Of a DNA stretch of 32,000 nucleotides, positions 1,832-27,496 are shown piece by piece. Position numbers and translations under genes: made by a program. Position 1 is the stretch's first letter; the number at the start of each line of letters is the position of its first letter. Origin of the DNA: Haloquadratum walsbyi C23 (GTDB taxonomy: Archaea > Halobacteriota > Halobacteria > Halobacteriales > Haloferacaceae); NCBI RefSeq assembly GCF_000237865.1, contig NC_017459.1, positions 1,410,001-1,442,000 of the forward strand, read 5' to 3'. The notes below the pieces were generated by a model. The model saw only the letters and a list, made by a program, of their open reading frames with translations. It had not been told where the DNA came from and ran no database searches.

Positions 1832-2508
1832 TATTGGAGTGGGGCCTGATTGTTACTGGGGGTCGTTGTTTGATTATCTGTACGCCTATCTTCCGGTTCA
1901 TCTACGATCGACGCCTGCTCTTTTGCTTCTTTGAGGCGGTATGCCGCTCTGAGGTGGCTTAATTCTCGTTTTGCTGTCCGCCAGTGAGAGATGTCGTCGA
2001 GTTCATTCTGGTCAAGTTCCTTGTCTGAAATCAGAAGTTCCTCTGGGTCATTCACGTCATATTTGGATTTGTACTCTGTGAGTTCCTGTTTTATTCGTTG
2101 AATTTGATTGACAAGCGTTTCGCTGGTGGCGAGTTTCCTGATCTGTTTGAGAAGATGCCACTCTGGATCTCGACTGTATAGCTTTCCAGAGTCGGTCTGA
2201 TGACTTCTAACGATGCCTTCTTCTGCAAGCTTGTTGAGTGTCGTCCTGGCTTTTGTTTCTGAGACGAGAGCTGTGTCTGAGATGTCGGACGCCGATTTCG
2301 GAGTCGTCGTTCTGTTGATCACCGTGCGAATTCGTTCGTCTGCAGTGCTCTGGTCTTTCCACTCTGCGGCGGCGAAGTCATCGATGTCCTCAAAGTCATC
2401 GTCATTAACACTGAATGGATCAATATCATCCACGGTCACCGGTTCGTTCGGGATTTCCTCTTCAGAGGGGAATTCGTCGGGGGCGTCCGGGGATGGGTCG
2501 CCAGTCAT
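1831..2508 (-). CDS. winged-helix protein with acidic N-terminal region (DUF7342-like haloarchaeal family, from memory)
   Basis: The ORF is open to 2535. ATG 2508 (MTGDPSPD...) lies about 28 nt downstream of an AAAAATATAT box on the minus strand, which fits a leaderless transcript. SASDISDTALVSETKARTTLNKLAEEGIV is HTH-like, and the C-terminal part is coiled-coil-like. Confidence 0.7.
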   Translation of the reverse strand: MTGDPSPDAPDEFPSEEEIPNEPVTVDDIDPFSVNDDDFEDIDDFAAAEWKDQSTADERIRTVINRTTTPKSASDISDTALVSETKARTTLNKLAEEGIVRSHQTDSGKLYSRDPEWHLLKQIRKLATSETLVNQIQRIKQELTEYKSKYDVNDPEELLISDKELDQNELDDISHWRTAKRELSHLRAAYRLKEAKEQASIVDEPEDRRTDNQTTTPSNNQAPLQ

Positions 2509-2530
2509 ACAATACACCATGCCGTAGACA

Positions 2531-2561
2531 CACATATATTTTTCTGACCCGCATATATGTG
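2531..2561. promoter_or_regulatory. 9-bp perfect inverted repeat CACATATAT-N13-ATATATGTG overlapping the TATA-like box of the 1831-2508 gene
   Basis: CACATATAT at 2531-2539 and ATATATGTG at 2553-2561. One arm coincides with the AT box about 28 nt upstream of ATG 2508. Candidate autoregulatory operator. Confidence 0.35.
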
Positions 2562-2596
2562 CTTTAGGACTTTGATATCGATGGTCTTGATACTAA

Positions 2597-3046
2597 TTAC
2601 CGTAGATTATTTCCGTATATCGCCGGGCCCGAGGTCGGCGGATGCTGGTAATTGATCGGCCGCCGCATCACCTTTCCTGGCCGATTACCAAAGCCGCCGA
2701 AGAGGTCGATGATTCGATAGACTGCACCACCACTCCAGTCACACTGCTCGCTCGAACACACCGCGTTAGCCAGGGCTCCGTTCTCTGTATCCAGGCGGAC
2801 ACTCTGGAGATCGAGTCGCTCGCTACAGCGTGGGCACGTCGCTGGGACTTGCGCATAGCGGTACCCTGTACCGACGTCGATATCACCTTGATCAGCGTCG
2901 ATGCCATGAAGCCCATCGACGAGATGGCCGATTCGTGAACGGAACTCGGTGAGAAGCGCGTTGCGGGCTTGTTCGTCGACGGGCAGTTCGGCTCTATTAA
3001 GGGTAATCGTTACTCGGTACGCTGTCGTCTCATTAATGTCTTTCAT
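2597..3046 (-). CDS. hypothetical protein with Cys4 zinc-ribbon-like motif
   Basis: The track start 3055 is GTG. ATG 3046 (MKDINETT...) is preceded by GAGGTGA 7 nt upstream (Shine-Dalgarno-like). CPRC ... CSSEQC suggests a zinc ribbon. Confidence 0.65.
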   Translation of the reverse strand: MKDINETTAYRVTITLNRAELPVDEQARNALLTEFRSRIGHLVDGLHGIDADQGDIDVGTGYRYAQVPATCPRCSERLDLQSVRLDTENGALANAVCSSEQCDWSGGAVYRIIDLFGGFGNRPGKVMRRPINYQHPPTSGPAIYGNNLR

Positions 3047-3081
3047 CGGGTTCACCTCTGGGTTGGGGGGTACGTTCGATT

Positions 3082-3111
3082 CCCCCGCACTCCTTCAGGG
3101 GGCGAAAAAAC
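3082..3111 (-). repeat. copy A of the conserved T-run + hairpin intergenic element
   Basis: Minus-strand reading: GTTTTTTCGCCCCCTGAAGGAGTGCGGGGG. Its 5-prime end is 65 nt upstream of ATG 3046. It is nearly identical to copy B at 5046-5074. Confidence 0.75.
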
Positions 3112-3177
3112 TCTCCGACTAAATCCAAGTAAGACCAATACGAACTCCGCTATCAGCGGTTGTCTTCTTCCTCGGAC

Positions 3178-3399
3178 TCACCCTTCTTGTGAACGGATTT
3201 CGTCGGCCTGTTGTTTGAGCCGGCGGAGAATTCGAACACGCTGCTGATTCGCGTTTTCGTACGCGACACACGCTCGCAGCGTCTCCATATCGTGAATAGT
3301 CACGATTCCCGCATTGATGAGTCGCAAGTTTGGTGGTTCGAGTCGCTGTGCTGGCGACAGTCCGTTCGAATCTCTTTCTTGCTCTTCTAAGTTGCTCAC
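3178..3399 (-). CDS. small hypothetical protein (73 aa)
   Basis: GTG start at 3399, preceded by GGAGG 9-13 nt upstream on the minus strand. No in-frame ATG before codon 38. Confidence 0.5.
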   Translation of the reverse strand: MSNLEEQERDSNGLSPAQRLEPPNLRLINAGIVTIHDMETLRACVAYENANQQRVRILRRLKQQADEIRSQEG

Positions 3400-3406
3400 T
3401 GATGAT

Positions 3407-3433
3407 CGCCTCCGCCCTTACAGAGGCGAAATA
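3407..3433 (-). repeat. copy D (more diverged) of the T-run + hairpin intergenic element
   Basis: Minus-strand reading: TATTTCGCCTCTGTAAGGGCGGAGGCG. It lies 34 nt upstream of GTG 3399 and 13 nt after the stop of the preceding gene. Confidence 0.55.
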
Positions 3434-3448
3434 GACCGCACCTACTCG

Positions 3449-3727
3449 CTACTCGTCGTCTTCCCCCGGTTGAATCTGGCGGGCATCTTCGGCGAGGTCA
3501 TGGATGTACCCCCGAAGCGTCTCCATGTCCTCGCGGGCGTCTTCGAGCGTCTTACCTTTCGCTTTCGCGATCACCTCGTCCTGATCTCTGGTGCCGGTTC
3601 CTCGTTTGAGCTTCACAGTGAGTGAAACTCCAACATCGCTTCGTTCGACATACTCGGTTCGTTTCGTGCGCTCTTCACTGGACGACGATTCAACTACTCG
3701 GCCTGGTTGTTGCTTTGAGTCAGACAT
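3449..3727 (-). CDS. small acidic hypothetical protein (92 aa)
   Basis: The ORF is open to ATG 3763, but that codon lies inside repeat copy C. ATG 3727 (MSDSKQQPG...) matches the spacing seen for the other copies. Confidence 0.6.
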   Translation of the reverse strand: MSDSKQQPGRVVESSSSEERTKRTEYVERSDVGVSLTVKLKRGTGTRDQDEVIAKAKGKTLEDAREDMETLRGYIHDLAEDARQIQPGEDDE

Positions 3728-3756
3728 TCGCTCTCCACGAGAGCCCTTTGACAGCT

Positions 3757-3783
3757 CTCGCATCCCTTCAGAGGGTGAAAAAC
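3757..3783 (-). repeat. copy C of the T-run + hairpin intergenic element
   Basis: Minus-strand reading: GTTTTTCACCCTCTGAAGGGATGCGAG. It lies 56 nt upstream of ATG 3727 and starts 7 nt after the stop of the 3790-4209 gene. Confidence 0.65.
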
Positions 3784-3789
3784 AAGTGG

Positions 3790-4209
3790 TTAGTCTGCGC
3801 TAGCGGGAGTACTGTCTACGTCGACGTCGTCGAGAAGAGGATAGTCGATGTGCATCTCAATTTTATCGAAGGGGACAATTGGTTGAATCGCTCCCCCAGG
3901 GCCTCCTTCTTTGAGTTCGAGGATGCCCAGCACCTCCAGTTGTTTCAGATCTGCATGGACATCAGAGACGTCGCGGTCGACGAGTCGTGCAGCCTTGCGC
4001 ATACTTGATGGGTGCTCTTTGGCGATCGCCTGAATGAGATTGAGGCGCAGTGGGGTGAGGCTGTCGACGAGATCGTCATAGGTCCCGAACTGGAGTACTG
4101 CACGCTCATCACTTTTGCCCAGTTCATCAGCCTCGGCACTCTGAATGAACTGGAGCGTATCCTCTCGGAGCTGTGCTCGGTCGCCGACGGTGATGTGAAG
4201 CGTGGTCAT
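3790..4209 (-). CDS. HVO_A0114-family-like putative DNA-binding protein (TumA-type antitoxin candidate)
   Basis: The track ORF extends to 4323 and overlaps the upstream gene. ATG 4209 gives MTTLHITVGDRAQLREDTLQFIQSAE...LTPLRLNLIQAIAKEHPSSMRKAARLVDRDVSDVHADLKQLEVLGILE. This is the architecture remembered for the haloarchaeal HVO_A0114 family (wHTH in the C-terminal half). Confidence 0.7.
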   Translation of the reverse strand: MTTLHITVGDRAQLREDTLQFIQSAEADELGKSDERAVLQFGTYDDLVDSLTPLRLNLIQAIAKEHPSSMRKAARLVDRDVSDVHADLKQLEVLGILELKEGGPGGAIQPIVPFDKIEMHIDYPLLDDVDVDSTPASAD

Positions 4210-4243
4210 GTTCGGGTGTGTTGGATGTGTGTTTTGCCTTCTG

Positions 4244-4558
4244 TCAATAGGGACGTTGCGGGTTGCCACCAATGGTGTCCCAGTATTCGTCAGCACTGGC
4301 CCAGAACTCGACGTCTGCGTCACCGGAAGCGGTGTGGAGTTCGTGGCCTTTGGTGTCTTCGTGGGCGTTGTCGTAACGGATGAGCGTTAGGTCTTGCAGC
4401 GTTCCCAGATGAAGGGTGTACTTCCAGCCGGACGGGTAGGCATCTGTATCGGTCGTCCGTCGGATGACTAGGTTCTCGACGAGTCCGGCTTCGACGTGGG
4501 GTGTAGCGGTGCGTGAGTTCGTAGCCCATCCCTCATCCGTTGGGTAGCCGCCCAACAC
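4244..4558 (-). CDS. TumE-family (DUF6516-like) toxin candidate
   Basis: 104 aa with a GTG start and no internal Met. The block WKYTLHLG...LIRYDNAHEDTKGHELHT resembles the RYDNAPHH-type signature remembered for TumE/DUF6516. It lies directly upstream of the HVO_A0114-like gene (34-nt gap). Confidence 0.6.
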   Translation of the reverse strand: MLGGYPTDEGWATNSRTATPHVEAGLVENLVIRRTTDTDAYPSGWKYTLHLGTLQDLTLIRYDNAHEDTKGHELHTASGDADVEFWASADEYWDTIGGNPQRPY

Positions 4559-4566
4559 TGTAAGTG

Positions 4567-4586
4567 TGTTGGGGATATTCCCAACA
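4567..4586. promoter_or_regulatory. near-perfect palindrome TGTTGGGGATATTCCCAACA upstream of the TumE-like operon
   Basis: Inverted arms TGTTGGG / CCCAACA surround an ATAT core, 9-28 nt upstream of GTG 4558. A third CCCAACA at 4551-4557 abuts the start codon. The element is related to the one at 6973-6993. Confidence 0.4.
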
Positions 4587-4620
4587 GCTACTCAGATAAT
4601 TGCGGGATATCGCTATCCAG

Positions 4621-5016
4621 CTATGGGGCGATGAGCTCATCCGCTTCCGCTCCAACCACTGCCTCAATCTCACCCCCGGTGAGACGCCAACGGTCGTTGG
4701 GACCGGCACACTCCAGTTGACTCACGACCTCGTTCTTGAACTGGGTGTAGTGCGTTAGCGCAAATTCTTCGTCATCTGTGTAGTTGAGTAGGAGCGCGAG
4801 TGCAAGCTGCGCTGGACCACTCCCACCGTATCCCCATTCGAACCCTATGGGGCTGTGGTTCGCCACCTTGAGACTCCGGTGTGGCGTGAGCTGTTCATGA
4901 TTAGGTAGTTTCTCCACGACAGCGCGTCCTCGTTGTCGATAGCCGATGTAGACGACATCGCGGTCAGTTCTTTGGCGTCTCTGCTCGGGCGATTGTGGGT
5001 CGATAATTCTACTCAT
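4621..5016 (-). CDS. DUF6166-like protein
   Basis: The track start 5055 is GTG and lies inside repeat copy B. ATG 5016 gives MSRIIDPQSPEQ.... The block GFEWGYGGSGPAQLALALLL is the signature remembered for DUF6166. Confidence 0.65.
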   Translation of the reverse strand: MSRIIDPQSPEQRRQRTDRDVVYIGYRQRGRAVVEKLPNHEQLTPHRSLKVANHSPIGFEWGYGGSGPAQLALALLLNYTDDEEFALTHYTQFKNEVVSQLECAGPNDRWRLTGGEIEAVVGAEADELIAP

Positions 5017-5045
5017 TGGTCTGATCGAAGGTACTCGTTCGAGCA

Positions 5046-5074
5046 CCCCCCGCACCCCTCAGGGGGCGAAAAAC
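5046..5074 (-). repeat. copy B of the conserved T-run + hairpin intergenic element
   Basis: Minus-strand reading: GTTTTTCGCCCCCTGAGGGGTGCGGGGGG, 58 nt upstream of ATG 5016. Confidence 0.75.
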
Positions 5075-5110
5075 TGCCCCATGTTCGCAGAATGACGACG
5101 AAGATGTACT

Positions 5111-5152
5111 ATTAACCAACAAATTCTGTGATTACCGAGTCATGTTGGTTAA
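5111..5152. repeat. inverted repeat ATTAACCAACAAA-N19-TGTTGGTTAA (locus 1)
   Basis: TTAACCAACA at 5113-5122 and TGTTGGTTAA at 5143-5152. The same arms recur at 12548-12621. Confidence 0.8.
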
Positions 5153-5236
5153 GATGGGTGGAGACAATCGATTTCACTCCGCAGATGCTGTGTGCTCTGA
5201 CACACGGGAGAAACGGGAGGATGGTCAGTGCTATGA

Positions 5237-6934
5237 CTAGTCGTCTACCTGGGGGACTCGCCAGATCGATGCGAGTCGTTCGGCAAGTTCTTGATTCCGT
5301 TCTCGAATCGTCTTTTCCGTCCAATTATCGCACTCCTCAAAATACCCGTTCAGCTCGACGTGGCTTTCCATGAGGAGTTCACGCTTTTCGTCAAATGGCC
5401 GATTCGAGAGCTCTGGATTGTAGCCACTGAGGGTTAGATTGCCAAGGGCGTGAAGCCACTGGTCGTGGATACGTTCCCATTCATCGCCAAGCATCGCTTT
5501 CCACTCGTCGCCCCATTCGTTGTCGTCGATCGTCTGCGGCATGACGTGCTCAATCGTGAGCTCATCATACTGAACCGGCTCTTTGTGTCCGAACTGCTCC
5601 TCAAGTGTTCGAAGAACGAGCCACGTTTTCTTTTTGTCGCGGTTGTACATATCAAATCGGAGGATGTTGTCAAGGAGTTCTGTGTCATCTGGCCATCCTT
5701 GACTTTTCAGATAGGCGAATAGCGAGCCTTTCACGTCGTCGTCTTCGATGGACCGTGCAGCAATCGGGAAGGTTCGGTAGTAGCCCCGCGTGCTTCGGCC
5801 GCAAATGAACCGCCGAAGAACGAAGCTTTCCAGTCCGTGTAGAGTCTCGAGAAGTTCATCTATCGAGAGGTTATCCGAATCCCATCTGTACAGCAGATTC
5901 AACACTAGCTGATGAGCCGTTCCAATTTCGAGATATTGGAGGCGACGCAGCGCGTTGGTAAGCTCTTCGTTTGGTGCCGTTTCCGGTCGCTGAATCCAGA
6001 GATAGAGGTCACCATAGTACGAGAGTTCATCCACGAGTTCTCTGGGTGTCATCTCTGACGTCCGCCGCTTGAACTGATGGTAGATTTCGTTTTTCTGGAC
6101 GTACTCACCGGTTCGCATCATATAGTCACGATAGAACTCCGTGAGATCGACCCCCGAATAGTCATCCGTCTCTTCGAACTTTTGCTCAAACGGCATCCAG
6201 TGTTCATCGTTGAACCGATCTTGCTCGGTCAGAGAGAGCTGCATAAAGACATGGTTCCGGATAAGATCAGACTCTTCAAGCTGAAGCCCACGCTCGTTTA
6301 GAGTCTCGAAGATAGCGTAGGGATTCTCGTCTTCAGAAGTCGTGATCATCACCAACGGAAGCTGTTGGATGATGATTTGCTTGAGCCGATCAAGCGTTTC
6401 AATCTCATCATCACCATTCACTTCCTCTATCTTGCTGTACAGGAAGTCATAGCTCTGGTAGATTGATGTCTCCGCAAGGTTCTCGTCTACGCTTTCCTGC
6501 TCCACGATGGTGAAGAGGGCGTCCCGATCTTCGGCACGTGAGATAACTTTGAACTTCTCGACCCCGTCTTTGAATTCGTCAATGAGATACTTCTTGTTAA
6601 TTTCTTCAGCGAAGCTATTGTGTCGCTCATCGTTTACCTCGGTCGCATAGTCTCGGATAGCACTGAGGAAGAGCGTGAGAGTGATGAGACGTTGCTGTCC
6701 ATCGATAACGAGATATTCTGGCACAGTCCCCGGGCGATGATTCCCGGGCATTACAACGAACGTACCAATGAAGTGTTCTTCAGAAAGCGAGTCGGCCTCC
6801 AAGAGGTTTTGCACGTCGGACCAGAGAGCATCTAATTCATCGGTCCCCCACGAATAGTTCCGTTGGAAGACTGGAATTACGAATTGCTTCTCGCCTGCAA
6901 ACACACTTTGGAGAAATTGATCTTCAGCGTCCAT
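5237..6934 (-). CDS. GmrSD-like type IV restriction endonuclease (DUF262 + DUF1524)
   Basis: 565 aa with an ATG start. N-terminal FVIPVFQRNYSW and IDGQQRLITL match the DUF262/ParB-like NTPase module. C-terminal EHVMPQT...WLHALGNLTLSGYNPELSNRPF matches the DUF1524 His-Me finger nuclease module. Confidence 0.9.
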   Translation of the reverse strand: MDAEDQFLQSVFAGEKQFVIPVFQRNYSWGTDELDALWSDVQNLLEADSLSEEHFIGTFVVMPGNHRPGTVPEYLVIDGQQRLITLTLFLSAIRDYATEVNDERHNSFAEEINKKYLIDEFKDGVEKFKVISRAEDRDALFTIVEQESVDENLAETSIYQSYDFLYSKIEEVNGDDEIETLDRLKQIIIQQLPLVMITTSEDENPYAIFETLNERGLQLEESDLIRNHVFMQLSLTEQDRFNDEHWMPFEQKFEETDDYSGVDLTEFYRDYMMRTGEYVQKNEIYHQFKRRTSEMTPRELVDELSYYGDLYLWIQRPETAPNEELTNALRRLQYLEIGTAHQLVLNLLYRWDSDNLSIDELLETLHGLESFVLRRFICGRSTRGYYRTFPIAARSIEDDDVKGSLFAYLKSQGWPDDTELLDNILRFDMYNRDKKKTWLVLRTLEEQFGHKEPVQYDELTIEHVMPQTIDDNEWGDEWKAMLGDEWERIHDQWLHALGNLTLSGYNPELSNRPFDEKRELLMESHVELNGYFEECDNWTEKTIRERNQELAERLASIWRVPQVDD

Positions 6935-7082: not shown

Positions 7083-7343
7083 TCACTCTCTCCTCAACCA
7101 CTCATTTTTCACACCTTCTGGGGGAGGACTTTTCGAAATCACTGGTTCTCCTTCACCTGGAACCAATCGAAGTTCTCCGTCTTCGATATACACGTCTACG
7201 ACATCGGTATCGACCGGGTCGATTCCAAGTTGGACAAGATCTGTCCCTGTGAGTGCGATACCGATCCCTAATGGGGTACTATCCCTGCATCGGTTCTCTC
7301 GAGCTGATGTAACTGGCTCCTCTGGCTCTTCGTGTGGAGGCAT
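7083..7343 (-). CDS. small hypothetical protein, possibly AbrB/SpoVT-like
   Basis: 86 aa with an ATG start. LGIGIALTGTDLVQLGIDPVDTDVVDVYIEDGELRLVP resembles swapped-hairpin DNA-binding modules. The 3-prime end of the ORF reads through a weak copy of the hairpin element (7110-7138), so the true C-terminus is uncertain. Confidence 0.45.
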   Translation of the reverse strand: MPPHEEPEEPVTSARENRCRDSTPLGIGIALTGTDLVQLGIDPVDTDVVDVYIEDGELRLVPGEGEPVISKSPPPEGVKNEWLRRE

Positions 7344-8232: not shown

Positions 8233-8961
8233 ATGCTCACAGAAGCTGAGGTTCGCGCCCTTACAGCCCTCCACGGTGAGCAGACGGTCTCTGACCTTGC
8301 AACGAATCTCGATCGGAGTCTCAGCTACACGTCAGAACTCGTCGAGCGGCTCGAAACGGCTGGCCTCGTCGAGACACGTCGACAGGGGAAAACAAAGCGG
8401 ATTCGACTGTCGGACGCAAAGGCCCTCGAGTTACTCACGAAACTCACACAACAGTATTCACACATCGACTGGCCGGAGCTGTTGTCAGGGGCTGCCCTCC
8501 GTGTGTGCTACTACCTCGACACCCCGCGGACCCCGACCAAACTCGCACGCCGCGCCGACGTCCACCGAAGTACCGTCCACCGTGCGCTAGCCCCGCTTCA
8601 GCATCGCGGAATCGTCTACCAAACTGACGACGGGGCGTACACACTGAACGATGGCTTCGAACCGCTGAGCGTATTCGCTCGTGAGCTTGCCCATCACGTC
8701 CACCGCCAGACTGTCGAAGCACAGACCGACACGTACTCGATTCTGTGGGAATCGCTTGACGAGTTCCTTGTACAGATGCCGACTGAGATCGACAACGAAC
8801 ACTTCATCCCGACAGGCCCAGACCAGTTCCAGCGATACAGAGCCGGAAGTCGTGAAAGAGAAAGGCGAGCCTGTCGAGCAGTATCCGCCGCCCGGCGAAG
8901 GCTGGTAGTCATCTCAACCTGGGAATATCTGGGGCGAAGCGCCCCCGGTCAGTGTCGGTAA
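8233..8961 (+). CDS. transcriptional regulator with two winged-helix-like modules; C-terminus suspect
   Basis: The track ORF starts at GTG 8110 inside GC-rich non-coding-looking sequence. ATG 8233 gives MLTEAEVRALTALHGEQTVSDLATNLDRSLSYTSELVERLETAGLVE.... A second HTH-like segment is PTKLARRADVHRSTVHRALAPLQHRGIV. The last ~45 aa are Arg-rich and overlap the convergent Bax1 gene. Confidence 0.65.
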   Translation: MLTEAEVRALTALHGEQTVSDLATNLDRSLSYTSELVERLETAGLVETRRQGKTKRIRLSDAKALELLTKLTQQYSHIDWPELLSGAALRVCYYLDTPRTPTKLARRADVHRSTVHRALAPLQHRGIVYQTDDGAYTLNDGFEPLSVFARELAHHVHRQTVEAQTDTYSILWESLDEFLVQMPTEIDNEHFIPTGPDQFQRYRAGSRERERRACRAVSAARRRLVVISTWEYLGRSAPGQCR

Positions 8962-10310
8962 TCAGGGGCGCGTCCGTCGACAGCGTACTCCTCAGCCAAC
9001 TCCACGACATCATAGACGTGAATCCCTGATTTGAACCACAGCACACGGTCATCCATCCCCTCAAAGTCATCCGACGAGCAATCCAATCGCTCAGATACGG
9101 CGACGATGAGATTATCACGGTCGGCGTCTCGTATTTTCGCCAGCTTCTTATCAAGATATTCGGGCGTCCAGAACCCGACGATCTCGAACACTACCCGCCG
9201 TCCATCTGGGTGTTCGATAGCGAAATCGGGAAGCATTACCTCCGCACCCAAGTCCAGCACATCATCCTCTCGGACGAGTTTCCAGTCCGTATTCATTCGC
9301 TCCCACTTCTGAGCAAGCGTTCGTTCGACATCAGAGTCGAACTCGCCTTGAGCCGAGTAGTGCGAAGACAATCCACTGGAGGAGTCAAGCTCAAACGAGA
9401 GTGTCCGACCTGCGGATCCGCTTTCATCGTTGAGAATATCCGCCTCCATTTTCCAGCGATCACACAACGGGAGTGCAGGCAGGAAGTTTGCCATCCGTAT
9501 CCCGTACTTCCGTGATTTCGAGAAGAGAGACGCTGCTCCGTCTAGAATCGCCTCATACCCGTCAGCAACGTCTGTACTGGGGACACGATTACCGTCGCTA
9601 TCGATTGGATAGATACGGTGCATCAAGCCGAATAGCTTGACATAGCTAAAAACAGTCGCAAATGAGTCCCAAACCCGTATCCGCATCTCGGTTGCATCGT
9701 AGAGTTCCGCCTGTGCCAGAGCCAGATTGTATCGCGTGAGAAGCCAGTCAACTGTGATGGTATCCTCAGCGTAGGACTCCTCACTATCACCCGTGAGTCG
9801 CGTTGTTGTTGATGACTCATCAGCCCCCTCGTATTTATCGGAAACACGGTGTCCAAAGCGGACGAGTCGCTTGTTCTCCTCCAAGTCCGCATACATCCCC
9901 CGATAGCACTCTTCAAGCGAGATACCCAGTCGATCAGCAACGGTACTGTATATCCACACGGATTGGGTATCCTCTCCCAACGTTGGTTGACGGACAATCG
10001 GGTGATTCCTGTTCGCAACTTCGAAAAGCTCCTGTCGAATCTCCCGTGAGTCAACTGGAGCAACCGTCTCAAACTCACATTCATCTTTCAGTAGCTTCGC
10101 CAGCCCTTGGACGATTTTGTAGTCGGTATCCGAAACCGTGAGCTGGTCAATTGTGTCTTCCAACTCTCCTTTCGATTCGCCGAGATGCTCCTCAAAAATC
10201 TGGATGAGCTCCGCCGCTGTCTCTCGATACTGTTGCTCGTCAGTATCGATGAGCAACGGAGTAATGCTATTCTCGTCCGTGCGTGAGCGTGCAAGGTCAG
10301 CTGTTAGCAT
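8949..10310 (-). CDS. bax1: Bax1-like nuclease (DUF790 family), partner of XPB
   Basis: 453 aa with an ATG start. It begins 14 nt before the stop of the upstream XPB gene. Size, N-terminus (MLTADLARSR...ITPLLID) and position downstream of XPB match the archaeal XPB-Bax1 operon. The family call is from memory and was not searched. Confidence 0.75.
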   Translation of the reverse strand: MLTADLARSRTDENSITPLLIDTDEQQYRETAAELIQIFEEHLGESKGELEDTIDQLTVSDTDYKIVQGLAKLLKDECEFETVAPVDSREIRQELFEVANRNHPIVRQPTLGEDTQSVWIYSTVADRLGISLEECYRGMYADLEENKRLVRFGHRVSDKYEGADESSTTTRLTGDSEESYAEDTITVDWLLTRYNLALAQAELYDATEMRIRVWDSFATVFSYVKLFGLMHRIYPIDSDGNRVPSTDVADGYEAILDGAASLFSKSRKYGIRMANFLPALPLCDRWKMEADILNDESGSAGRTLSFELDSSSGLSSHYSAQGEFDSDVERTLAQKWERMNTDWKLVREDDVLDLGAEVMLPDFAIEHPDGRRVVFEIVGFWTPEYLDKKLAKIRDADRDNLIVAVSERLDCSSDDFEGMDDRVLWFKSGIHVYDVVELAEEYAVDGRAPDYRH

Positions 10311-11706
10311 CTGAAGTCACCCCCTGCCGACGTTGTTCGGAAACGTAGGTCTCCATTGTGTCTTCGGCGATGATCTCGTAGAGACGAGCGGGTTGTCGGT
10401 CGTCTGTTGGACGGAGAATTCGCCCTAATCGTTGTGCATACTGGCGTTTCGACGCACTCCCTGAGAGAATAATCCCAACGTTCGCCGCAGGCACGTCGAT
10501 TCCCTCATCAAGCACCTGTGAGGTAGCGAGCATCGAGTACTCCCCTGTCCGAAACCGCTCCAGAATTTCTGTTCGTTCGTCAGTCTCAGTCTGGTGTGTG
10601 ATACACGGGACGACGAACTCTTGAGAGATGTCGTATGCGAACTCGTTGTTGGCGGTGAAAATAATAGTGCGGTCGTCATAATGTCGTTTCAGGAGGGTAT
10701 CGAGCGTGTCAAGTTTCTTTTCAGCAGTACGAGCGATGGTTTCCGCTCGTTGCTTGGCGATGAGAGCCCGTCTCCCCTGTGGGTCATACGAAGTCCGCTT
10801 GAGGAACTCAGCATACCCGTTTTCTTTCCAGAGGTCAAAATCGTGGCTGTCAACATAGTCACGGTAAATCCCGTATTCTTCATCGTATTGTTCCCGTTCG
10901 TCTCCTGTTAACTCTACCCCGAGATGGATGGTTTCGTACTCGCTGAGGTACTCGCCAGCAAGTTCGTTAACCTCCTCTCGGTAGACGACCGTGCCCAGAA
11001 GCTCCTTCAATGTCTTGTGTTTGCCGTCAGCACGCTCATAGGTGGCTGTGAGTCCGAGTCGATACGGGGAGATCGTCATTTCAGGAATCTGCTGGTAGGT
11101 TGGAGCTGGCAGATGGTGTACTTCGTCGACAACAAGAAGTCCAAACTTGTCGCCGTATTCGTTGATGTAGCGGTAGGCGGAGTCATAGGTCGTAACCGTG
11201 ATGTTTGTGATATTGTGACTTCCGCCACCAAGAACACCGACCCCATCAGGGAGTTGCTCGCTGAACGCGTTAGTGAGCGTCGCGTGCCATTGGTTCATCA
11301 AGTCGATCGTCGGAACGACGACCAGCGTACTCACACCTGCATCAGCAATCGCTTGGACAGCAAGGAACGTCTTTCCGCTTCCAGTCGGGAGAACAACGCT
11401 TCCCTGGCGGTCGTTGTCCTGCCACGCCGAAAGAGCCTCCTGCTGATAATCTCGCGGTTCGATAGCAACCGAGGGAGTGAAGTGAAACTCGGAGTACGCA
11501 CGGGCATCATCTTCGAACTCAGCTATGGTCGCTGTGGATTGGGTGAGAGTGGCTTGTTCGTCGGGGTCAGCCAGCCAATCACAGATATCGCGATAGTGTT
11601 GTGCCCGTGCCCGATACTCTTCAACACGGTCATCCCACTCAGCATATGGCACAGTATCAGGGGCGTCTTCAAGAAGAAGCGTGCCGTCATCAAAGGCGAG
11701 ACGCAT
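10297..11706 (-). CDS. xpb: XPB/Rad25-type superfamily 2 DNA helicase
   Basis: 469 aa. N-terminal MRLAFDDGTLLLED, Walker A LPTGSGKT, motif II DEVHH, LGLTATYERADG (RED-like motif position of XPB), TSQVLDEGIDVP, and motif VI QRLGRILR. Confidence 0.9.
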   Translation of the reverse strand: MRLAFDDGTLLLEDAPDTVPYAEWDDRVEEYRARAQHYRDICDWLADPDEQATLTQSTATIAEFEDDARAYSEFHFTPSVAIEPRDYQQEALSAWQDNDRQGSVVLPTGSGKTFLAVQAIADAGVSTLVVVPTIDLMNQWHATLTNAFSEQLPDGVGVLGGGSHNITNITVTTYDSAYRYINEYGDKFGLLVVDEVHHLPAPTYQQIPEMTISPYRLGLTATYERADGKHKTLKELLGTVVYREEVNELAGEYLSEYETIHLGVELTGDEREQYDEEYGIYRDYVDSHDFDLWKENGYAEFLKRTSYDPQGRRALIAKQRAETIARTAEKKLDTLDTLLKRHYDDRTIIFTANNEFAYDISQEFVVPCITHQTETDERTEILERFRTGEYSMLATSQVLDEGIDVPAANVGIILSGSASKRQYAQRLGRILRPTDDRQPARLYEIIAEDTMETYVSEQRRQGVTSDANS

Positions 11707-12142: not shown

Positions 12143-12547
12143 ATGCTATCATCATCGTTTCACATTATAAATATGCTCTTGCGTAGACCATTGTTGGTGG
12201 CGAGCTGTCGGGCGATCTTGTTGTAGTTCCACACGGTGTCTGGACTTACCAGAACAGGAGTGAGACAGGGTGAAAGAATCGATTTCCCGAATTCACTCAG
12301 TCCGGAGAGTTCTTACCAACAATGTACTTCATAAGAGCGTTACAAGTATTACGCCCACGTTTGTTGTGACATACCTCAGGGGCAAGCCCCGAGGCTTCCC
12401 TGTTGAGACCGCACTACATCAGCAAGGGAATTTCATTTCTCCTGAGCTTTTCCATGAGGAACCGGCTGGAAGTAACACCCGAACACACCACAGCGCCCCT
12501 AAAAGCCAGTCACTCCAGCATAACCCGTATAGCTGCAAAAAGCCCAC

Positions 12548-14400: not shown

Positions 14401-14832
14401 ATGCCCATTGTGAGCTCTTCGATGACGGAGCGACTCCGGGACGATCTCGATACGTTTGCGGAAGAACATGGTTACACCGGACGAAGTGAGGTCATTCGCG
14501 AAGCGTGCCAGTCGCTACTTGAAGAGTATCAAGAAACAGACGACGAGGATCGGCGGGTATTGGCGACAGTTACGGCTGCTTTTGGATACGACGAACCGGA
14601 GATCGAACGCCGGATGATGGATATCCGCCACGAATTCGAAGCGTTAGTTCGGTCGAACTCTCACAACTGTCTCGAAGGCAACGCCGGCTGTGTCGAGACG
14701 TTCGTCATCGAAGCCGCACATAATGACGTCCTGCGTTTTATCGGGACCGTTCGAGGAGCAGACGAGTCAGTCTCGGTCGAATACACAGTTGTCCCTGTCG
14801 ATGCGATGAATGCCGAAACCAGCGATGAATAG
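14401..14832 (+). CDS. nikR: NikR-family (ribbon-helix-helix + metal-sensing domain) regulator, paralog 1
   Basis: N-terminal RHH segment VSSSMTERLRDDLDTFAEEHGYTGRSEVIREACQSLL. The C-terminal domain carries RHEFEALVRSNSHNCLEGNAGCVE. It is followed by cbiMNQO. Confidence 0.85.
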   Translation: MPIVSSSMTERLRDDLDTFAEEHGYTGRSEVIREACQSLLEEYQETDDEDRRVLATVTAAFGYDEPEIERRMMDIRHEFEALVRSNSHNCLEGNAGCVETFVIEAAHNDVLRFIGTVRGADESVSVEYTVVPVDAMNAETSDE

Positions 14833-14969
14833 GTCCGAAATCACCCGCGTCGACGGAAGTTGACTACTTTCTCTATCAAGAATCAGCAATATTCTATACC
14901 AAGATTATTATCTTACTTAATTTGATACAGCAACTTTATTATAATTAGAGACAAATTTGTCAAATATAG

Positions 14970-15650
14970 ATGGCACACATTCACCTTGGAGAAGGAACGT
15001 TCCCGGTATGGGCACTTATTCTGTGGACGACGATCGGCGTGGTACTGATCAGTGCTATAGTCTACCGGATCCGGAAGGGCAGTATCAAAACACACCAGAT
15101 CGCACTCGCCGGAATCGGCGCGGCGGCGAGTTTCGCGGTTTTCCAGTTGAATATCCCCGTTTGGGGGGGTATCCACATGAACCTCACCGGTCTCGTCGGC
15201 ATTATCGCCGGACCGCTGCTTGGTGCGTTGATTGCGCTGGTGGTGAACATCTTCTCGGCAGCGCTTGGTCACGGTGCAGTCGGTCTCCTCGGGGCGAATA
15301 CACTCGTCAACGCGAGCGAAGCTATCGTCGCTTACTACGCGTTCAAGACCCTGATGAGGATGGACTGGGATGTCTTCCCCGCCAGCGCTAGTGCCGCAAC
15401 GCTCGGTCTTTCGGCAGGAGCGTTCCTAATGGGAGCGATCATTATAATAAGCGGCGTGAACGGGAGCGCACTGCCACGCGGTGACCTCACGATTGCGGTC
15501 GCTGGGCTTGTCGGACTCAATCTCGGCGTCGCAGTCATCGAGGGTATCCTGACTGGATTCATCATCCAGTTCCTCGCCTCCGTCCGTCCCGACCTCGTTG
15601 ACCTTGCCGACCGTGACACACAGGAGGAACCGACCGGGGTGACGGCCTGA
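14970..15650 (+). CDS. cbiM: ECF transporter substrate-capture subunit CbiM/NikM
   Basis: N-terminus MAHIHLGEG (the CbiM/NikM-type N-terminal His loop), multiple TM helices, and a TGATG overlap with the next gene. Confidence 0.9.
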   Translation: MAHIHLGEGTFPVWALILWTTIGVVLISAIVYRIRKGSIKTHQIALAGIGAAASFAVFQLNIPVWGGIHMNLTGLVGIIAGPLLGALIALVVNIFSAALGHGAVGLLGANTLVNASEAIVAYYAFKTLMRMDWDVFPASASAATLGLSAGAFLMGAIIIISGVNGSALPRGDLTIAVAGLVGLNLGVAVIEGILTGFIIQFLASVRPDLVDLADRDTQEEPTGVTA

Positions 15651-15973
15651 TGCAGCGCTGGAAGCAGTATGGCGGTCTCCTCGGACTGTTCGCTGCTTTT
15701 CTCGCCGCTGGGTATTGGGGCTTCACCGCAACCGGCGGTGCCTTGCCGTACGCCAAACGCTCTGCGAAAGCCCTCCAGCGTGGTGTGCAGGAAAGCGGCG
15801 GTTCGCTTGTCGACTTCGGCCGTGGTATCGTTGTCGCCGGACCCATTCGGAAGGGCGGAATGATGATCGAATTTGCTGCGATCGTCCTTGTACTGGTTAC
15901 CCTCGGTATCGGGCTGTACATCTATGTCGACCGCTACGGCGGCTTTAATGACAGAGAACCTCCAGTTTCATAA
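15650..15973 (+). CDS. cbiN: small two-TM membrane protein in the CbiN/NikN position
   Basis: 107 aa with two hydrophobic helices (YGGLLGLFAAFLAAGYWGF and MMIEFAAIVLVLVTLGIGLYIYV). It sits between cbiM and cbiQ. The sequence itself is not recognisably CbiN. Confidence 0.55.
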   Translation: MQRWKQYGGLLGLFAAFLAAGYWGFTATGGALPYAKRSAKALQRGVQESGGSLVDFGRGIVVAGPIRKGGMMIEFAAIVLVLVTLGIGLYIYVDRYGGFNDREPPVS

Positions 15974-15975
15974 TT

Positions 15976-16788
15976 ATGACGACGCTCTCGAACCACGTTC
16001 CCGATCCGCGACTCATCACGGCGTTCGCCGAACGACGAGACGGACCGTTACACCGCGTCAATCCATGGACGAAGGTTGGCGTCGTCGGTGCACTCGTCCT
16101 CGCCGTCACGGTGTTCGACCGCCTTGCACTCTTGGCCGGACTATACGGAGCCATACTGGTGATCTATGGACTCGCAGGACTGCCATATCGACGACTCGCT
16201 GGCTGGTACACGCTCCCGATGCTGTTCATCGTCTCGGTTGCCGGACCGCTGGCGTTCCTCGAACCAGGGACGCCAATCGGTGGCGCGCTCTTGACACCGC
16301 TCGGTGAACTTTCTGTCACGTGGGCAGGGCTCGTGCTCTTTTCGGAGCTCACCTGCCGGTCACTCACAGTCGTCACATTTGTCTTGACGGCGTCGATGAC
16401 GACCAAATATACCGACGTCGCGTACATGCTTGGGCGGTTACTCCCACGACCGATCGACCAGATCGCGCTGCTTACCTATCGGTTCACGTTTGTCATGATC
16501 GAGACGCTCGAAGATTTAGCAAAAGCCGCGCTCTCTCGGAGTGCGAACTTCTCAGAGTTTTGGTCGAACAAACGGCTGTATGCCAGAATCCTCGGGATGA
16601 CGATGCTGTCGGCGATAGAGCAGTCCGAACGCCTCGTCAAGTCGATGGAAGCCCGTGGCTACAATGGCGATATCACGCTGTACGGTGACGTCTCGCGACC
16701 ACCAATCCACGAACTATTCATGATGGTGGGTTCGTACGCTGCTGTCGTCGGCTACGCTGTGGTCGCGGTCTACGGGGTGAGACTGTGA
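15976..16788 (+). CDS. cbiQ: ECF transporter transmembrane (T) component CbiQ
   Basis: 270 aa, multi-TM. LTYRFTFVMIETLEDLAKAALSRSANF ... VKSMEARGY are typical T-component coupling-helix regions. It overlaps cbiO by 4 nt. Confidence 0.9.
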   Translation: MTTLSNHVPDPRLITAFAERRDGPLHRVNPWTKVGVVGALVLAVTVFDRLALLAGLYGAILVIYGLAGLPYRRLAGWYTLPMLFIVSVAGPLAFLEPGTPIGGALLTPLGELSVTWAGLVLFSELTCRSLTVVTFVLTASMTTKYTDVAYMLGRLLPRPIDQIALLTYRFTFVMIETLEDLAKAALSRSANFSEFWSNKRLYARILGMTMLSAIEQSERLVKSMEARGYNGDITLYGDVSRPPIHELFMMVGSYAAVVGYAVVAVYGVRL

Positions 16789-17660
16789 GCCGAGACCATT
16801 CACCGCTCGTCAATCTTCAGTGTGAGGCTCACACTTACCCCGACGGGACGGTCGGCATGCACGATGTCGAATTCTCGGTGTACCCTGAGGAAGTCGTCGC
16901 ACTCGTCGGCGGTAACGGTGCTGGGAAGTCGACACTCCTCGAACACCTGAACGCGACGCTTGTTCCCGACGACGGCGAACTTGTCATTGGCGGCACGCTG
17001 ATCACCGAAGATAATAAGACACATGCACGGAGCGAAGTCGGCTTCGTCTTCCAGGACGCCGATACCCAGCTCGTTGCGCCAACAGTCCTCGATGACGTAA
17101 TGTTCGGTCTCCAGAACTACGGCGTGCCCGGTGACGAAGCGAGAGAGCGTGCTCGTGAGGCGCTTGCGACTGTTGACGCGGGTCACCTCGAAGACCGGAT
17201 TCCTCACTATCTGAGCGGTGGCGAGAAACGCCTCGTCGGTCTCGCCGGTGTGCTCGTCCTCGAACCGAGTGTGATCGTGTTGGACGAACCACTTGCAGGG
17301 CTCGACCCCGAGCGCTCCCAACTGGTCGCCAAGCGAATCGAGCAGATTCACGAGGATGGTATTAGCGTCGTTCTGTCGACGCATGACCTCGAATTTGCCG
17401 CTGAAGTCGCAGACCGAGTCTGTGCGATGGTCGACGGCAATATCGTTGGAAGCGGAACGCCCCGGGAGGTGTTCTACGACGACGCGCTATTGGCGGAAGC
17501 AAACCTTCATCCGCCCAGTGCTGTTCGCGTGGCTCGGGATGCGGGGCTGGGAACGACCGAACAGCCAGTGACGGAAGCGGATCTAGTGGCGCTCCTCACA
17601 GAAGCTGACAACCCGGAAACCACGCAGATACCCTCTCCAAGTGGGCGTAGACACGACTGA
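16785..17660 (+). CDS. cbiO: ECF transporter ATPase CbiO
   Basis: Walker A GGNGAGKST, signature LSGGEKRLV, Walker B VIVLDEP. GTG start overlaps the cbiQ stop. Confidence 0.9.
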   Translation: MSRDHSPLVNLQCEAHTYPDGTVGMHDVEFSVYPEEVVALVGGNGAGKSTLLEHLNATLVPDDGELVIGGTLITEDNKTHARSEVGFVFQDADTQLVAPTVLDDVMFGLQNYGVPGDEARERAREALATVDAGHLEDRIPHYLSGGEKRLVGLAGVLVLEPSVIVLDEPLAGLDPERSQLVAKRIEQIHEDGISVVLSTHDLEFAAEVADRVCAMVDGNIVGSGTPREVFYDDALLAEANLHPPSAVRVARDAGLGTTEQPVTEADLVALLTEADNPETTQIPSPSGRRHD

Positions 17661-18665: not shown

Positions 18666-20060
18666 TCAAGTATTACAGTATGTTACATACTCTGTATCGA
18701 ACTCTCGTGACGGTGGTTGTTGGAATCGTGAACCCAGATCCGTCGATGTATAGGGGTCTTTTAGCACGGTCAATAATCTCTTGAATTTGGATAGGTCCCC
18801 AGTTTCGATATACTCATCCAGTGCTTCTTCAGCCAGGTAGTTGCGGAGGATATATCGCGGATTGGCTTCTTGCATCAACTCCGCATCTAGACCGACAGCA
18901 GTCAGTTTATTCCTGAGCCGTTCGAATTCCGTACTTGCAAACGCTGGGTCATCAAACGTACCGGGCATCTCTAATTCGAGGAACGTATTGGTATAGTCTG
19001 CGCTCGATTTGCGAAGCCACTCCACGAATTCATCGACGAGTTCTTCCTCGCCATCTGAGTTAATCCCCAGTTTCCTCCGCATCATCGTGTAGTATTGCGC
19101 ATCAAATCGATCCTCAAACTCGTCTAGTTTGCCTTCGAGTTCGTCATACGTGAGCGCTGACTGGGCACACAACGGTTGGAGTGACTCTGCGAATCGTTCG
19201 AGATTCCACCGCAGGATCGGTCGCTGGTTTCCGAACGCATATCGCCCGTGTTTATCGATTGAGCTGAAAACCGCCTCCTCATCATAATAATTCATGAATG
19301 CGCAGGGTCCGTAATCAAATGTTTCGCCATCGATACTCATATTGTCCGTGTTCATGACGCCATGAATAAATCCGATACGTAGCCAGTCAATGACCATCTC
19401 AATCGATGACTGCATGACTGCATCGAAGAATTCTAGATATGTCCGATCTTTTGCGTTTAATTCCGGATAATGCCGGTCAATAACATAGTCGGTGAATCGT
19501 GGTAGTTCATTGGATATCTGAGCTGCGACATACTGGAAAGTCCCGTATCGAATATGACTGTTCATCACTCGAACAAGGATGGCTCCAGGTTCTGTCCGTC
19601 GTCGTTCAACTGTTTCCTCGGTTTCGATGACCGCCAAACTTCTTGATGTTTTGATGTTTAGATTCTGCATCGCATATGAGTACAGATATTCTCTGAGCAT
19701 TGAACTGACCGTTGCGTTGCCATCACCTCTCCCGGAGTACGGCGTTCGACCAGATCCTTTCAGTTGAATATCGTATCTGTTATCTTCGTGGACATGTTCG
19801 CCGAGTATCATCGCTCTCCCGTCGCCCAAGAGAGTAAAACTTCCATACTGGTGGCCTGCATATGCCTGGGCGATTGATTCTTCTGTGAGATCCTGACCCG
19901 CTAGAATGGTAGCATTAAGTTCCGATGTATCCAATCCAATATCAGCACAGAGCCCGTCATTAATAACCAAAATTTCGGGATTATCAATATCTTTTGGGGC
20001 TACTTTGCAATACAGATCCGAATCTAAATCTTCGTAAGTGGTGTTGAACGAAAAGACCAT
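18666..20060 (-). CDS. selO: SelO/YdiU-family protein adenylyl/uridylyl-transferase
   Basis: 464 aa. Blocks AYAGHQYGSFTLLGDGRA, LKGSGRTPYS and HGVMNTDNMSIDGETFDYGP are typical of SelO. The gene and its flanks are visibly AT-richer than neighbouring genes. Confidence 0.9.
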   Translation of the reverse strand: MVFSFNTTYEDLDSDLYCKVAPKDIDNPEILVINDGLCADIGLDTSELNATILAGQDLTEESIAQAYAGHQYGSFTLLGDGRAMILGEHVHEDNRYDIQLKGSGRTPYSGRGDGNATVSSMLREYLYSYAMQNLNIKTSRSLAVIETEETVERRRTEPGAILVRVMNSHIRYGTFQYVAAQISNELPRFTDYVIDRHYPELNAKDRTYLEFFDAVMQSSIEMVIDWLRIGFIHGVMNTDNMSIDGETFDYGPCAFMNYYDEEAVFSSIDKHGRYAFGNQRPILRWNLERFAESLQPLCAQSALTYDELEGKLDEFEDRFDAQYYTMMRRKLGINSDGEEELVDEFVEWLRKSSADYTNTFLELEMPGTFDDPAFASTEFERLRNKLTAVGLDAELMQEANPRYILRNYLAEEALDEYIETGDLSKFKRLLTVLKDPYTSTDLGSRFQQPPSREFDTEYVTYCNT

Positions 20061-20265
20061 TTAATTATATCGTATTATGTTACTTGCTTTAATAATCTTA
20101 ACTTTGAAGATATTAAGAATCGATCGATTAGTGAGGTTCAAATCGGCGTGTGCTACGTACATACTTCGTATTCAGCAAACGGGCTCTTTCAACTCCTGCG
20201 AATTTCAACACCGAATCACGAGTTGATATACCGTTCAATGGAATCTTCGCCCTTCAGGGCGGAGA

Positions 20266-23290: not shown

Positions 23291-23722
23291 CTATTCCGAA
23301 TGAGATAGCTGGCACTGACCGTCACTAATTGGCGCAATCGAGTAATCTACTGCCCGGATATCCGGCACGGCCCGGACGGTGTTGACGAAGCCGGATAGGG
23401 CCTCCGTGGTCCCCTCTAGGACGTACAACTCCATACAGTACTGGTCTTGGACGTGTGTATGAGTAGTCGCGGAGACGATAGCATCGTATTCGTGGCGTAC
23501 TCCCGTGAGACGCTGCTGGACGGCAGGTTGACAGTACTCGAAGACCACCGTGACTGTACACATATGCTTCTGTCCGTCGATGGTTCGCCCCTGAAACTCT
23601 TCAAGCAGCGTCCGTGTGCCTTCGCGGACGACCTCGCTTCGGCCACTGTACCCGTGTTCGTCGGCGAACTCGTCGATGCGTTCGAGTAACGCCTCGGGCA
23701 TCGATATGCTAACAACGCTCAT
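23291..23722 (-). CDS. nikR: NikR-family regulator, paralog 3
   Basis: MSVVSISMPEALLERIDEFADEHGYSGRSEVVREGTRTLL (RHH, close to paralog 1). The C-terminal domain carries RHEYDAIVSATTHTHVQDQYCME (His, H.H-N5-C). It is divergent from the COG0523 operon. Confidence 0.85.
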   Translation of the reverse strand: MSVVSISMPEALLERIDEFADEHGYSGRSEVVREGTRTLLEEFQGRTIDGQKHMCTVTVVFEYCQPAVQQRLTGVRHEYDAIVSATTHTHVQDQYCMELYVLEGTTEALSGFVNTVRAVPDIRAVDYSIAPISDGQCQLSHSE

Positions 23723-23820
23723 ATGATAAAATTTTATTCTGAGTTATTAGTATCTGTTATGAATATAGCAGTCGTACCGTAATAATTAGTATTTTAATAG
23801 AGTAAATTCATAAATAACGT

Positions 23821-27289: not shown

Positions 27290-27292
27290 CCG

Positions 27293-27496
27293 ATGAGACT
27301 CTACGGAATCGGGCTAGAACCAGATGCAACCGACCTGCTTACGATGCGTGGTAGGCGACGAGTCAATTCGGTCGACATCCTTTATTCATCAACATAACTG
27401 GCACGGCACGTCGCAGCCGAGTACGTTTCTAGATCGAAACTGAGTGACCACGACCTCCCGATGCCAACCGGTCCCAAGGAACTGCAGGCAGCGTAA
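27293..27496 (+). pseudogene. N-terminal remnant of a tetrapyrrole (precorrin-2 C20-type, CbiL/CobI-like) methyltransferase gene
   Basis: MRLYGIGLEPDATDLLTMRGRRRVNSVDILYSST*LARHVAAEYVSRSKLSDHDLPMPTGPKELQAA*. The MRLYGIGLGPG...LT.RG...ADV.Y start is typical of TP-methylases. There is an in-frame stop at 27395-27397 and the frame ends after 67 codons. Confidence 0.5.

Follow-up and report, generated by a model that had tools for sequence, protein, structure and literature searches.

In haloarchaea, the basal promoter carries a TATA box of the type TTWT centred at -27/-28 (PMC2151090), together with a CGAAA B recognition element (BRE) and a WW dinucleotide at -10/-11 (Brenneis et al. 2007). In a Haloferax reporter, the oligo-T motif T5C brought 95% of transcripts to an end (PMC7237163), and regulons directed by a given TFB are known in these organisms (PMC2396416). 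Here, we report on an element made of a T-run followed by a GC-rich hairpin, four copies of which (B, C, D and A, in the order of the genes) lie in front of four successive minus-strand genes in a 32,000-nt stretch of Haloquadratum walsbyi C23 (NC_017459.1, positions 1,410,001 to 1,442,000), hereafter called the window. Such elements mark where small transcription units begin in a conserved module of haloarchaeal plasmids of the conjugative type, and they travel with the gene that lies downstream of them. In its mode of action, the element seems closest to an archaeal core promoter joined to an oligo-T terminator, to which it adds a covarying dyad without counterpart in any described archaeal promoter class. 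Most likely it is a promoter of a special kind, with a spacer that has to remain foldable. It is apparently undescribed, since no description was found in the searchable literature. An initial annotation of the window had proposed three readings, namely a promoter-operator with a TATA-like T-run and a palindrome before the start, controlled by a neighbouring winged helix-turn-helix (wHTH) protein; a terminator followed by a structured leader; and a recombination site at cassette boundaries.

When a mixed set of 28 elements was aligned with MAFFT and submitted to RNAalifold, no consensus structure was obtained and the stems were out of register, a problem that anchoring on the dyad centre solved. 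The covariance model R1 was built from 14 elements aligned in this way without gaps; they represent six gene families and all come from outside the window. At E<=0.05, this model gave 97 matches in the window and 20 related haloarchaeal plasmid or genome loci (designated by L numbers), without exception on the coding strand. A further 80 came from 25 metagenome contigs that had been picked by one 22-nt core seed, and these are all co-oriented with the seed. Thus 177/177 model matches are co-oriented with the gene array. A purely structural descriptor, which asks for TTTT and then, after no more than 3 nt, for a GC-rich stem of 6 bp or longer with a 6-13 nt loop, found 83 sites on the coding strand against 15 on the opposite strand, with 7.8 expected per strand from dinucleotide shuffles. 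The scans reveal a strong association with gene starts: in ten annotated loci, 51 of the 54 model matches are followed by a start codon on the same strand at a distance of 1-95 nt (median 26), the element is carried by 51 of 157 genes, none with an upstream gap below 49 nt, and 28 of 97 element-less genes start less than 40 nt after the previous gene. This gap pattern, together with the proximity to start codons, indicates that each element stands in front of a unit of one or two genes.

The region of the window that carries the element matches 132 haloarchaeal plasmid records, including pHV4 of Haloferax volcanii and pHS1 and pHS2 of Halobacterium salinarum R1; Halobacterium NRC-1, for which transcriptome atlases exist, lacks the region that strain R1 carries on these two plasmids. 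The array reads in the order TFB, several unknown genes, DUF6735, DUF7568/DUF7567, DUF6166, DUF7389, a 73-aa gene, small genes, DUF6610 and a gene for an ArdC-like single-stranded DNA (ssDNA)-binding protein, all co-oriented, with cargo genes inserted between them. Many of the array-bearing plasmids are typed as mating-pair formation class T (MPF_T), and a 2026 study described this plasmid family as sharing Orc1/Cdc6, SSB, TFB, ArdC-like, VirB4/VirD4 and XerA genes, in which the elements are not mentioned (PMC13532300). In the complete 81.5-kb sequence NZ_CP100458.1 (loci L021 and L022), all nine matches obtained up to E=1 with filters off fall within 44.2-55.2 kb, an 11-kb module that opens immediately ahead of the TFB gene and closes with the gene that follows ArdC, and no match was found in the regions of the type IV secretion system (T4SS), ParA, Orc1 or BREX. 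On pHV4 (NC_013966.1), elements lie at 45,804-45,835 and 46,852-46,885. The window holds only a fragment of the module, flanked by a GmrSD gene and interrupted by a TumE-type toxin-antitoxin pair. The former (window 5237-6934), a GmrSD-type (DUF262/DUF1524) type IV restriction endonuclease gene, lies directly upstream of copy B in place of the usual DUF6166 neighbours. Upstream of DUF6166, other plasmids may have a gene of 131 aa or of 163 aa or else a divergent restriction gene, where the window has GmrSD, while the hairpin family in front of DUF6166 stays the same. A protein-seeded scan of genome contigs returned only three loci. A scan of viral contigs found nothing, and the region has no phage match. 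Rfam gave no match in the window as a whole at gathering scores, nor any up to E=1 in the part 2500-5300, and a kink-turn or box C/D identity was dropped, as the defining motifs are lacking.

A search of the relatives for the motif of the window copies turned up sites ahead of many other genes, whose stems were quite unlike. The elements have in common a G before the T-run (88%), a C or G behind it, and a loop that is rich in purines and ends in GGGTG. Their stems are wholly different between gene families and yet remain complementary, as in CGCCCCC/GGGGGTG, GTCGCCTC/GAGGCGAC, GAGCCTCC/GGAGGCTC, TGCGCCGGC/GCCGGCGCA, CACGCCGTC/GACGGCGTG and AGGGGC/GCCCCT. In the 14-element alignment from which R1 derives, 90% of positions are paired versus 49% in shuffles, and all eight pairs change on both sides. 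Among 85 distinct sequences, 81.8% of the cells are paired, as compared with 52.6% in shuffles and 42-53% in slid controls, and 198 cells are compensatory versus 73 in shuffles; none of 500 shuffles reached either observed value. Selection thus keeps the arms complementary, not their sequence. Orthologue sets assembled by protein homology, and so not selected for a hairpin, retain the hairpin with different stems; together with the tenfold enrichment and the absolute strand bias, they support the element independently.

Counted from the last T, hairpin 1 has its centre at +13 (interquartile range (IQR) 11-14), about -13 from the predicted start, and ends at a median of +24 (IQR 21-25). Its 3' arm can also pair with a downstream segment, forming a helix of at least 6 bp in 63 of the 77 elements with leaders of at least 14 nt, versus 33% of shuffled leaders. 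The loop of this second helix is centred at +28 (IQR 25.5-30) and straddles the predicted start. The two helices (1:2 and 2:3) are mutually exclusive, since the second uses the whole 3' arm of the first. In C-rich families, pairing of the 5' arm with the G-run of the loop offers a further alternative, which is the palindrome that the initial annotation had described.

In the window, the coordinates and minus-strand sequences first given for the four copies match the letters of the window, and the distances from element to start codon (65, 58, 56 and 34 nt for A, B, C and D) are correct (Table 1). The signal is real, as copies B, A and D are recognised by a model built from sequences outside the window; copy C scores poorly because its outer stem is decayed, and its orthologues in L001, L004, L006 and L018 pair better. 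Searching the whole window for TTTTTCRCCCYCTGARGG with up to three mismatches returned exactly copies A (3092-3109), C (3765-3782) and B (5056-5073), all on the minus strand, whereas dinucleotide shuffles gave a mean of 0.09 matches and none of 100 reached three; a repeat search also groups A, B and C together. Folding confirmed the second hairpins proposed for B, C and A, and the whole leader of copy B folded as a single strand has z=-2.46, with the loop of the second hairpin falling at the predicted transcription start. As had been stated, the proteins encoded downstream show no relation to each other: two belong to DUF6166 and DUF7389, and two have no Pfam match. The weaker look-alikes listed at 7110-7138, 12374-12394 and 20248-20262 were not confirmed, being absent from the R1 matches up to E=10. 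One weak match (E=0.49) lies at 15696-15743 on the plus strand between genes of the CbiM/CbiQ region; it has a 14-nt loop insertion and is probably due to chance. A motif TCGAAC, TCAAAC or TCAATC recurs directly after hairpin 1, in the predicted start region, at many loci and at window 3074-3079 and 5037-5042, and the TCGAAC-type motif is present twice, about 16 nt apart, in the DUF6166 family.

Table 1. Coordinates of the elements, their parts and the genes that they precede (window positions unless a locus is named)
Feature	Position	Strand	Details
Copy B, before the DUF6166 gene	5042-5074	-	R1 E=2.9e-5, motif, folding
Copy B, parts	5074; 5073-5069; 5068-5044	-	G; T-run; hairpin 1 (CGCCCCC / GGGGGTG), loop motif GGGGTG
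Copy B, second hairpin (2:3)	5027-5050	-	GGGGGGTGCTC-GAAC-GAGTACCTTC; shares the G-run with hairpin 1
DUF6166 gene	4621-5016	-	start 5016
Copy C, before the DUF7389 gene	3737-3783	-	motif, folding; R1 only E=9.6 (3740-3783)
Copy C, parts	3782-3778; 3775-3764	-	T-run; hairpin 1, only the inner CCCT/AGGG pairs
Copy C, second hairpin	3761-3737	-	strong, 9 bp
DUF7389 gene	3449-3727	-	start 3727
Copy D, before the 73-aa gene	3402-3437	-	R1 E=0.007; 22 orthologues
Copy D, parts	3433-3429; 3429-3406	-	box TATTT instead of a T-run; 10-bp hairpin, z=-4.6 (folding)
73-aa gene, no Pfam family	3178-3399	-	GTG start 3399
Copy A, before the 149-aa gene	3077-3113	-	R1 E=2.1e-4, motif, folding
Copy A, parts	3110-3105; 3101-3082	-	T-run; hairpin 1 (CCCCTG / CGGGGG)
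Copy A, second hairpin	3052-3086	-	G-run 3086-3082 pairs with C-run 3070-3065
Copy A, Shine-Dalgarno-like sequence	3059-3052	-	AGAGGTGA, after the second hairpin
149-aa gene, no Pfam family	2597-3046	-	start 3046
TFB-gene element, L011	12440-12480	-	
TFB-gene element, L022	2311-2345	+	

On balance, we lean towards the view that each element is a compact, module-specific archaeal promoter cassette. The box G-T5-6-C/G would be the TATA box, and where a gene ends just upstream the same T-run would double as the oligo-T terminator of that gene; the run is taken to be primarily a TATA box and secondarily a terminator. Transcription would start about 25-26 nt past the last T, at the 3' foot of the first GC-rich dyad and also inside the loop of the second dyad, which shares the 3' arm of the first. 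In sequence the box agrees with TTWT, and the end of the hairpin at about +24 is near the start expected from a TATA box at -27/-28. While about 82% of the boxes are T5 or longer, the remaining 18% or so read TTTAT, TATTT, TTTATTTT or TTTGT in orthologues, and TATTTAT is also seen in place of the T-run. The TFB gene, which comes first in the array and has no preceding gene in need of a terminator, carries TATTTAT (L011) or TTGTTTATT (L022), followed by the usual hairpin. No other conserved A/T-rich box was found within 44 nt upstream. The placement is that of a promoter, before the first gene of a unit and on the coding strand, and the predicted start often falls at a C/G-A step. In the 73-aa and 99-aa families, the start codon lies 5-7 nt past the hairpin, which fits near-leaderless mRNAs; for copy D, the GTG start is only 6 nt past the hairpin and the mRNA would therefore be nearly leaderless.

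Compared with the basal promoter (Brenneis et al. 2007), the elements likewise have a TTWT-type box at a fixed distance before gene starts, one per unit, TATA-like variants of this box, and distances to the start codon that fit near-leaderless or short-leader mRNAs. They differ in that the CGAAA BRE is missing, that GGGTG occupies the predicted -10 position, that the whole spacer between TATA and start is a GC-rich covarying dyad, and that they are confined to one plasmid module. This conserved GGGTG, at about -13 to -8, would take the place of the A/T-rich -10/-11 element of ordinary haloarchaeal promoters. The two exclusive dyads may act on unwound DNA, during promoter melting, cruciform extrusion or in a single-stranded plasmid, and would thereby give structural on/off control of initiation; they would not constitute a sequence-specific operator.

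Several points weigh against this promoter reading. The 16 nt upstream of the box contain no BRE (CGAAA), only the G at -1 (88%) and a weak G bias. There is no WW at the predicted -10/-11, and positions +15/+16 after the last T are 70-75% G if the start is at +26. The TATA assignment is drawn only from geometry and from sequence variants of the box, and the link to the plasmid TFB only from co-location. The covariation suspected in the initial annotation is real across gene families and weak within orthologue sets, where stems are mostly just conserved, and the cross-family alignments were selected for, or fitted to, structure. With a start 26 nt past the T-run, the transcript would lack the shared arm. 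Lastly, the second dyad of the DUF6166 family has an excess of G-T pairs that resembles folding of the sense-strand RNA.

This last point bears on the possibility that the U-run and both hairpins are transcribed, by read-through or from an unrecognised upstream start, and act in the mRNA, be it as an intercistronic processing or stabilising site, as an Lsm-type U-tract plus stem-loop, or as a translational switch between the 1:2 and 2:3 pairings. We consider such an RNA-level role unlikely. In its favour, both alternative pairings are conserved, and G-T pairs outnumber A-C mismatches 19 to 4 in the second helix; 13 of the 19 come from the DUF6166 family (G-T 13, A-C 1), so this is suggestive only. 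In hairpin 1 there is no such bias (G-T 10, A-C 10), which lends folding as RNA no support. The wobble data do not choose between melted or cruciform promoter DNA, ssDNA plasmid and RNA as the folded molecule. On the side of translation, the loop GGGGUG resembles the haloarchaeal Shine-Dalgarno sequence GGAGGUGA, the 3' arm of the 73-aa and 99-aa families contains GGAGG at 9-10 nt from the start codon, and a clear GAGGTGA closes several leaders. Leader B, when folded as a single strand, has z=-2.5. Against it, T5C ends about 95% of transcripts in Haloferax, so that read-through over up to nine such sites in one array is implausible; there is no conserved promoter upstream of the T-run, where the neighbour varies between orthologues; the T-run has TATA-like variants, including the one before the head-of-array TFB gene; and no Rfam family matches. 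We therefore rank a structural role at the DNA level first and an RNA leader second, because an RNA made from the promoter would lack the shared arm and an RNA coming from upstream would have to cross a strong terminator. The same consideration cuts both ways for the terminator plus structured leader of the initial annotation: T5C is a proven strong terminator, and a transcript from the promoter would not contain hairpin 1.

That the elements are mainly terminators, in which the T-run ends the preceding gene and the GC-rich block does no more than slow the polymerase, which improves termination and insulates neighbouring units, appears very unlikely to us. The likeness to the archaeal oligo-T terminator (T5C, Berkemer et al. 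2020) lies in a coding-strand G-T5-6-C run soon after the preceding stop codon: T-runs often begin 5-20 nt past it, about 82% of the boxes have at least five T on the non-template strand after a gene, and a G at -1 (88%) and a C or G at +1 bound the run. In the elements, however, the hairpin comes after the run, some runs hold A or G, and the element is retained in places with a divergent neighbour upstream or none at all, for example before DUF6166 where it follows a divergent restriction gene and before the TFB gene that heads the array. The roughly 18% of boxes reading TTTAT, TATTT or TTTGT would be poor terminators, and GC content alone would need no complementarity whereas the arms covary. 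The Haloferax 3'-end tables list no end near the pHV4 copies, at 45.80-45.82 or 46.84-46.87 kb, where expression may be low (Berkemer 2020). Tables of processing sites contain nothing for the two pHV4 copies (Ibrahim 2021). A bacterial-type intrinsic terminator was rejected, as the order of T-run and hairpin is reversed and a terminator scan finds nothing at the elements.

If the elements are promoters, they would be read as one regulon, most plausibly through the TFB encoded by the plasmid itself. This protein has a canonical zinc ribbon and two cyclin repeats and is the only transcription factor that recurs in the module, and the element in front of its gene suggests that it belongs to its own regulon. 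Examples of the plasmid TFB are WP_254547331 and WP_050049476. The situation is like that of the hsp5/TFB2/TFBb regulon (Lu et al. 2008), in that a set of promoters with a distinctive core is perhaps read by one TFB paralogue; for hsp5, BRE and TATA suffice and the downstream sequence is dispensable, whereas the conserved part of the elements is downstream of the box and structural. Of the three initial readings, the one with a TATA-like T-run and a palindrome before the start is the best supported, except for its regulator: the neighbouring wHTH gene (3790-4209) sits in the inserted TumE-type pair, which most relatives lack. A single dimeric-repressor operator was excluded as well. From one family to another, both sides of all eight stem pairs are altered whereas the loop is maintained, and one dimeric repressor could not read the elements because the stems differ from gene to gene. 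In the operators of the TrmB/TGM, Phr and MDR1 type, palindromes also lie between TATA and start, with half-sites conserved across the regulon; in the elements, the half-sites differ for each gene and only complementarity is kept.

The inserted pair has features of its own. The wHTH gene, of the HVO_A0114 family, follows a TumE-family toxin gene (4244-4558), whose start is overlapped by two GTTGGG-N6-CCCAAC palindromes, 29 nt apart, at 4539-4585 on the minus strand. The two genes, which are inserted between DUF6166 and copy C, have the appearance of a toxin-antitoxin pair under an operator of its own. Elsewhere (L004 2768-4131, L006 6766-8129 and L011 6348-7711), a cassette of a sigma-70 region-4-like helix-turn-helix protein and a nucleotidyltransferase lies between DUF7389 and the 73-aa gene; the window lacks this cassette.

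Alternatively, the elements could be attC-like cassette boundaries, REP/MITE-like palindromes (repetitive extragenic palindromes or miniature inverted-repeat transposable elements) or Xer sites that shuffle small genes in the array. Gene content between elements does vary (the TumE pair in the window, inserts encoding a nucleotidyltransferase or an ATPase in other plasmids), the combination of a constant structure and a changing sequence is reminiscent of attC, in which one structured site of variable sequence also lies between co-oriented small genes, and the plasmid family encodes XerA (PMC13532300). However, attC is the 3' end of the upstream cassette, measures 55-140 nt, contains R and L boxes and needs IntI, whereas the hairpin family follows the downstream gene under any upstream neighbour. 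With a length of only about 35 nt, the element has neither R/L boxes nor terminal inverted repeats nor target duplications. It never occurs apart from gene starts or in the opposite orientation, and no integrase adjoins the arrays. The recombination reading, which the initial annotation had put forward as its third, is already largely refuted, and we regard it as extremely improbable. A dispersed repeat was likewise rejected, as the copies share structure and not sequence and lie in one module, on one strand, before genes; the absence of any gene-start bias, which had been considered as the case that would undo the element, is not what the scan shows.

The module might also be the leading region of an archaeal plasmid, where hairpins resistant to SSB, with an exposed T-run, would prime the complementary strand or time early expression. 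The ArdC-like ssDNA-binding protein belongs to the module, the plasmids carry genes for a VirB4/VirD4-type T4SS and SSB (PMC13532300), the strand specificity is absolute (177/177), and arms that keep foldability and not sequence are seen in other signals read in ssDNA. The resemblance to the Frpo/ssi signals of leading regions is one of folded repeats, conserved in structure, before small co-oriented genes near an ArdC-type gene on a T4SS plasmid. In Frpo, however, long hairpins rebuild duplex -35/-10 sequences, while the hairpin of the elements is about 25 nt long and leaves the T-run outside, so that folding cannot rebuild a duplex TATA in the same way, and the host uses TBP and TFB; an A-run able to pair with the T-run and to rebuild a duplex TATA on ssDNA was seen by eye only sporadically and not as a general feature. 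Besides, the positions of the elements are tied to gene starts rather than evenly spread, and the transfer of these plasmids as ssDNA is only presumed. We regard a signal read in this way as very unlikely. The promoter reading can be combined with part of this idea: the stretch from TFB to ArdC would be an archaeal establishment or leading region with an orthogonal transcription programme, made of the plasmid TFB, GGGTG at -10, no host BRE, and dyads that sense the state of the incoming DNA (single-stranded, relaxed or supercoiled), and firing only on entry. We think this quite unlikely.

Beyond the module, the window contains an XPB-like helicase gene adjoining that of a DUF790 protein (8949-11706), a pair found at 72-77% DNA identity in many haloarchaeal plasmids. 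Two regions (14401-17660 and 23291-31958) are devoted to metal homeostasis, with two NikR-like regulators, CbiM/Q/O, two CobW GTPases, a molybdopterin-binding protein and ZnuABC, and SelO is encoded at 18666-20060.

Haloarchaeal megaplasmids of the T4SS type are common, as the gene cluster around the elements matches 132 plasmid records. The shared cis-signal would define a set of co-expressed, unannotated small genes, among them DUF6166, DUF7389, DUF7567/7568, DUF6610 and ArdC-like genes, and would tie them to the plasmid TFB, giving a concrete case for the long-standing idea that the multiple TFBs of haloarchaea work like sigma factors. For annotators, the covariance model offers a means of finding operon heads in these plasmids. 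The element also poses a mechanistic puzzle, a spacer between TATA and start that would be selected for foldability and not for sequence, which can be tested in Haloferax volcanii since pHV4 carries copies. Should the establishment programme proposed above prove true, the elements would represent the first class of structure-gated promoters from archaea, analogous in function to the bacterial Frpo promoters.

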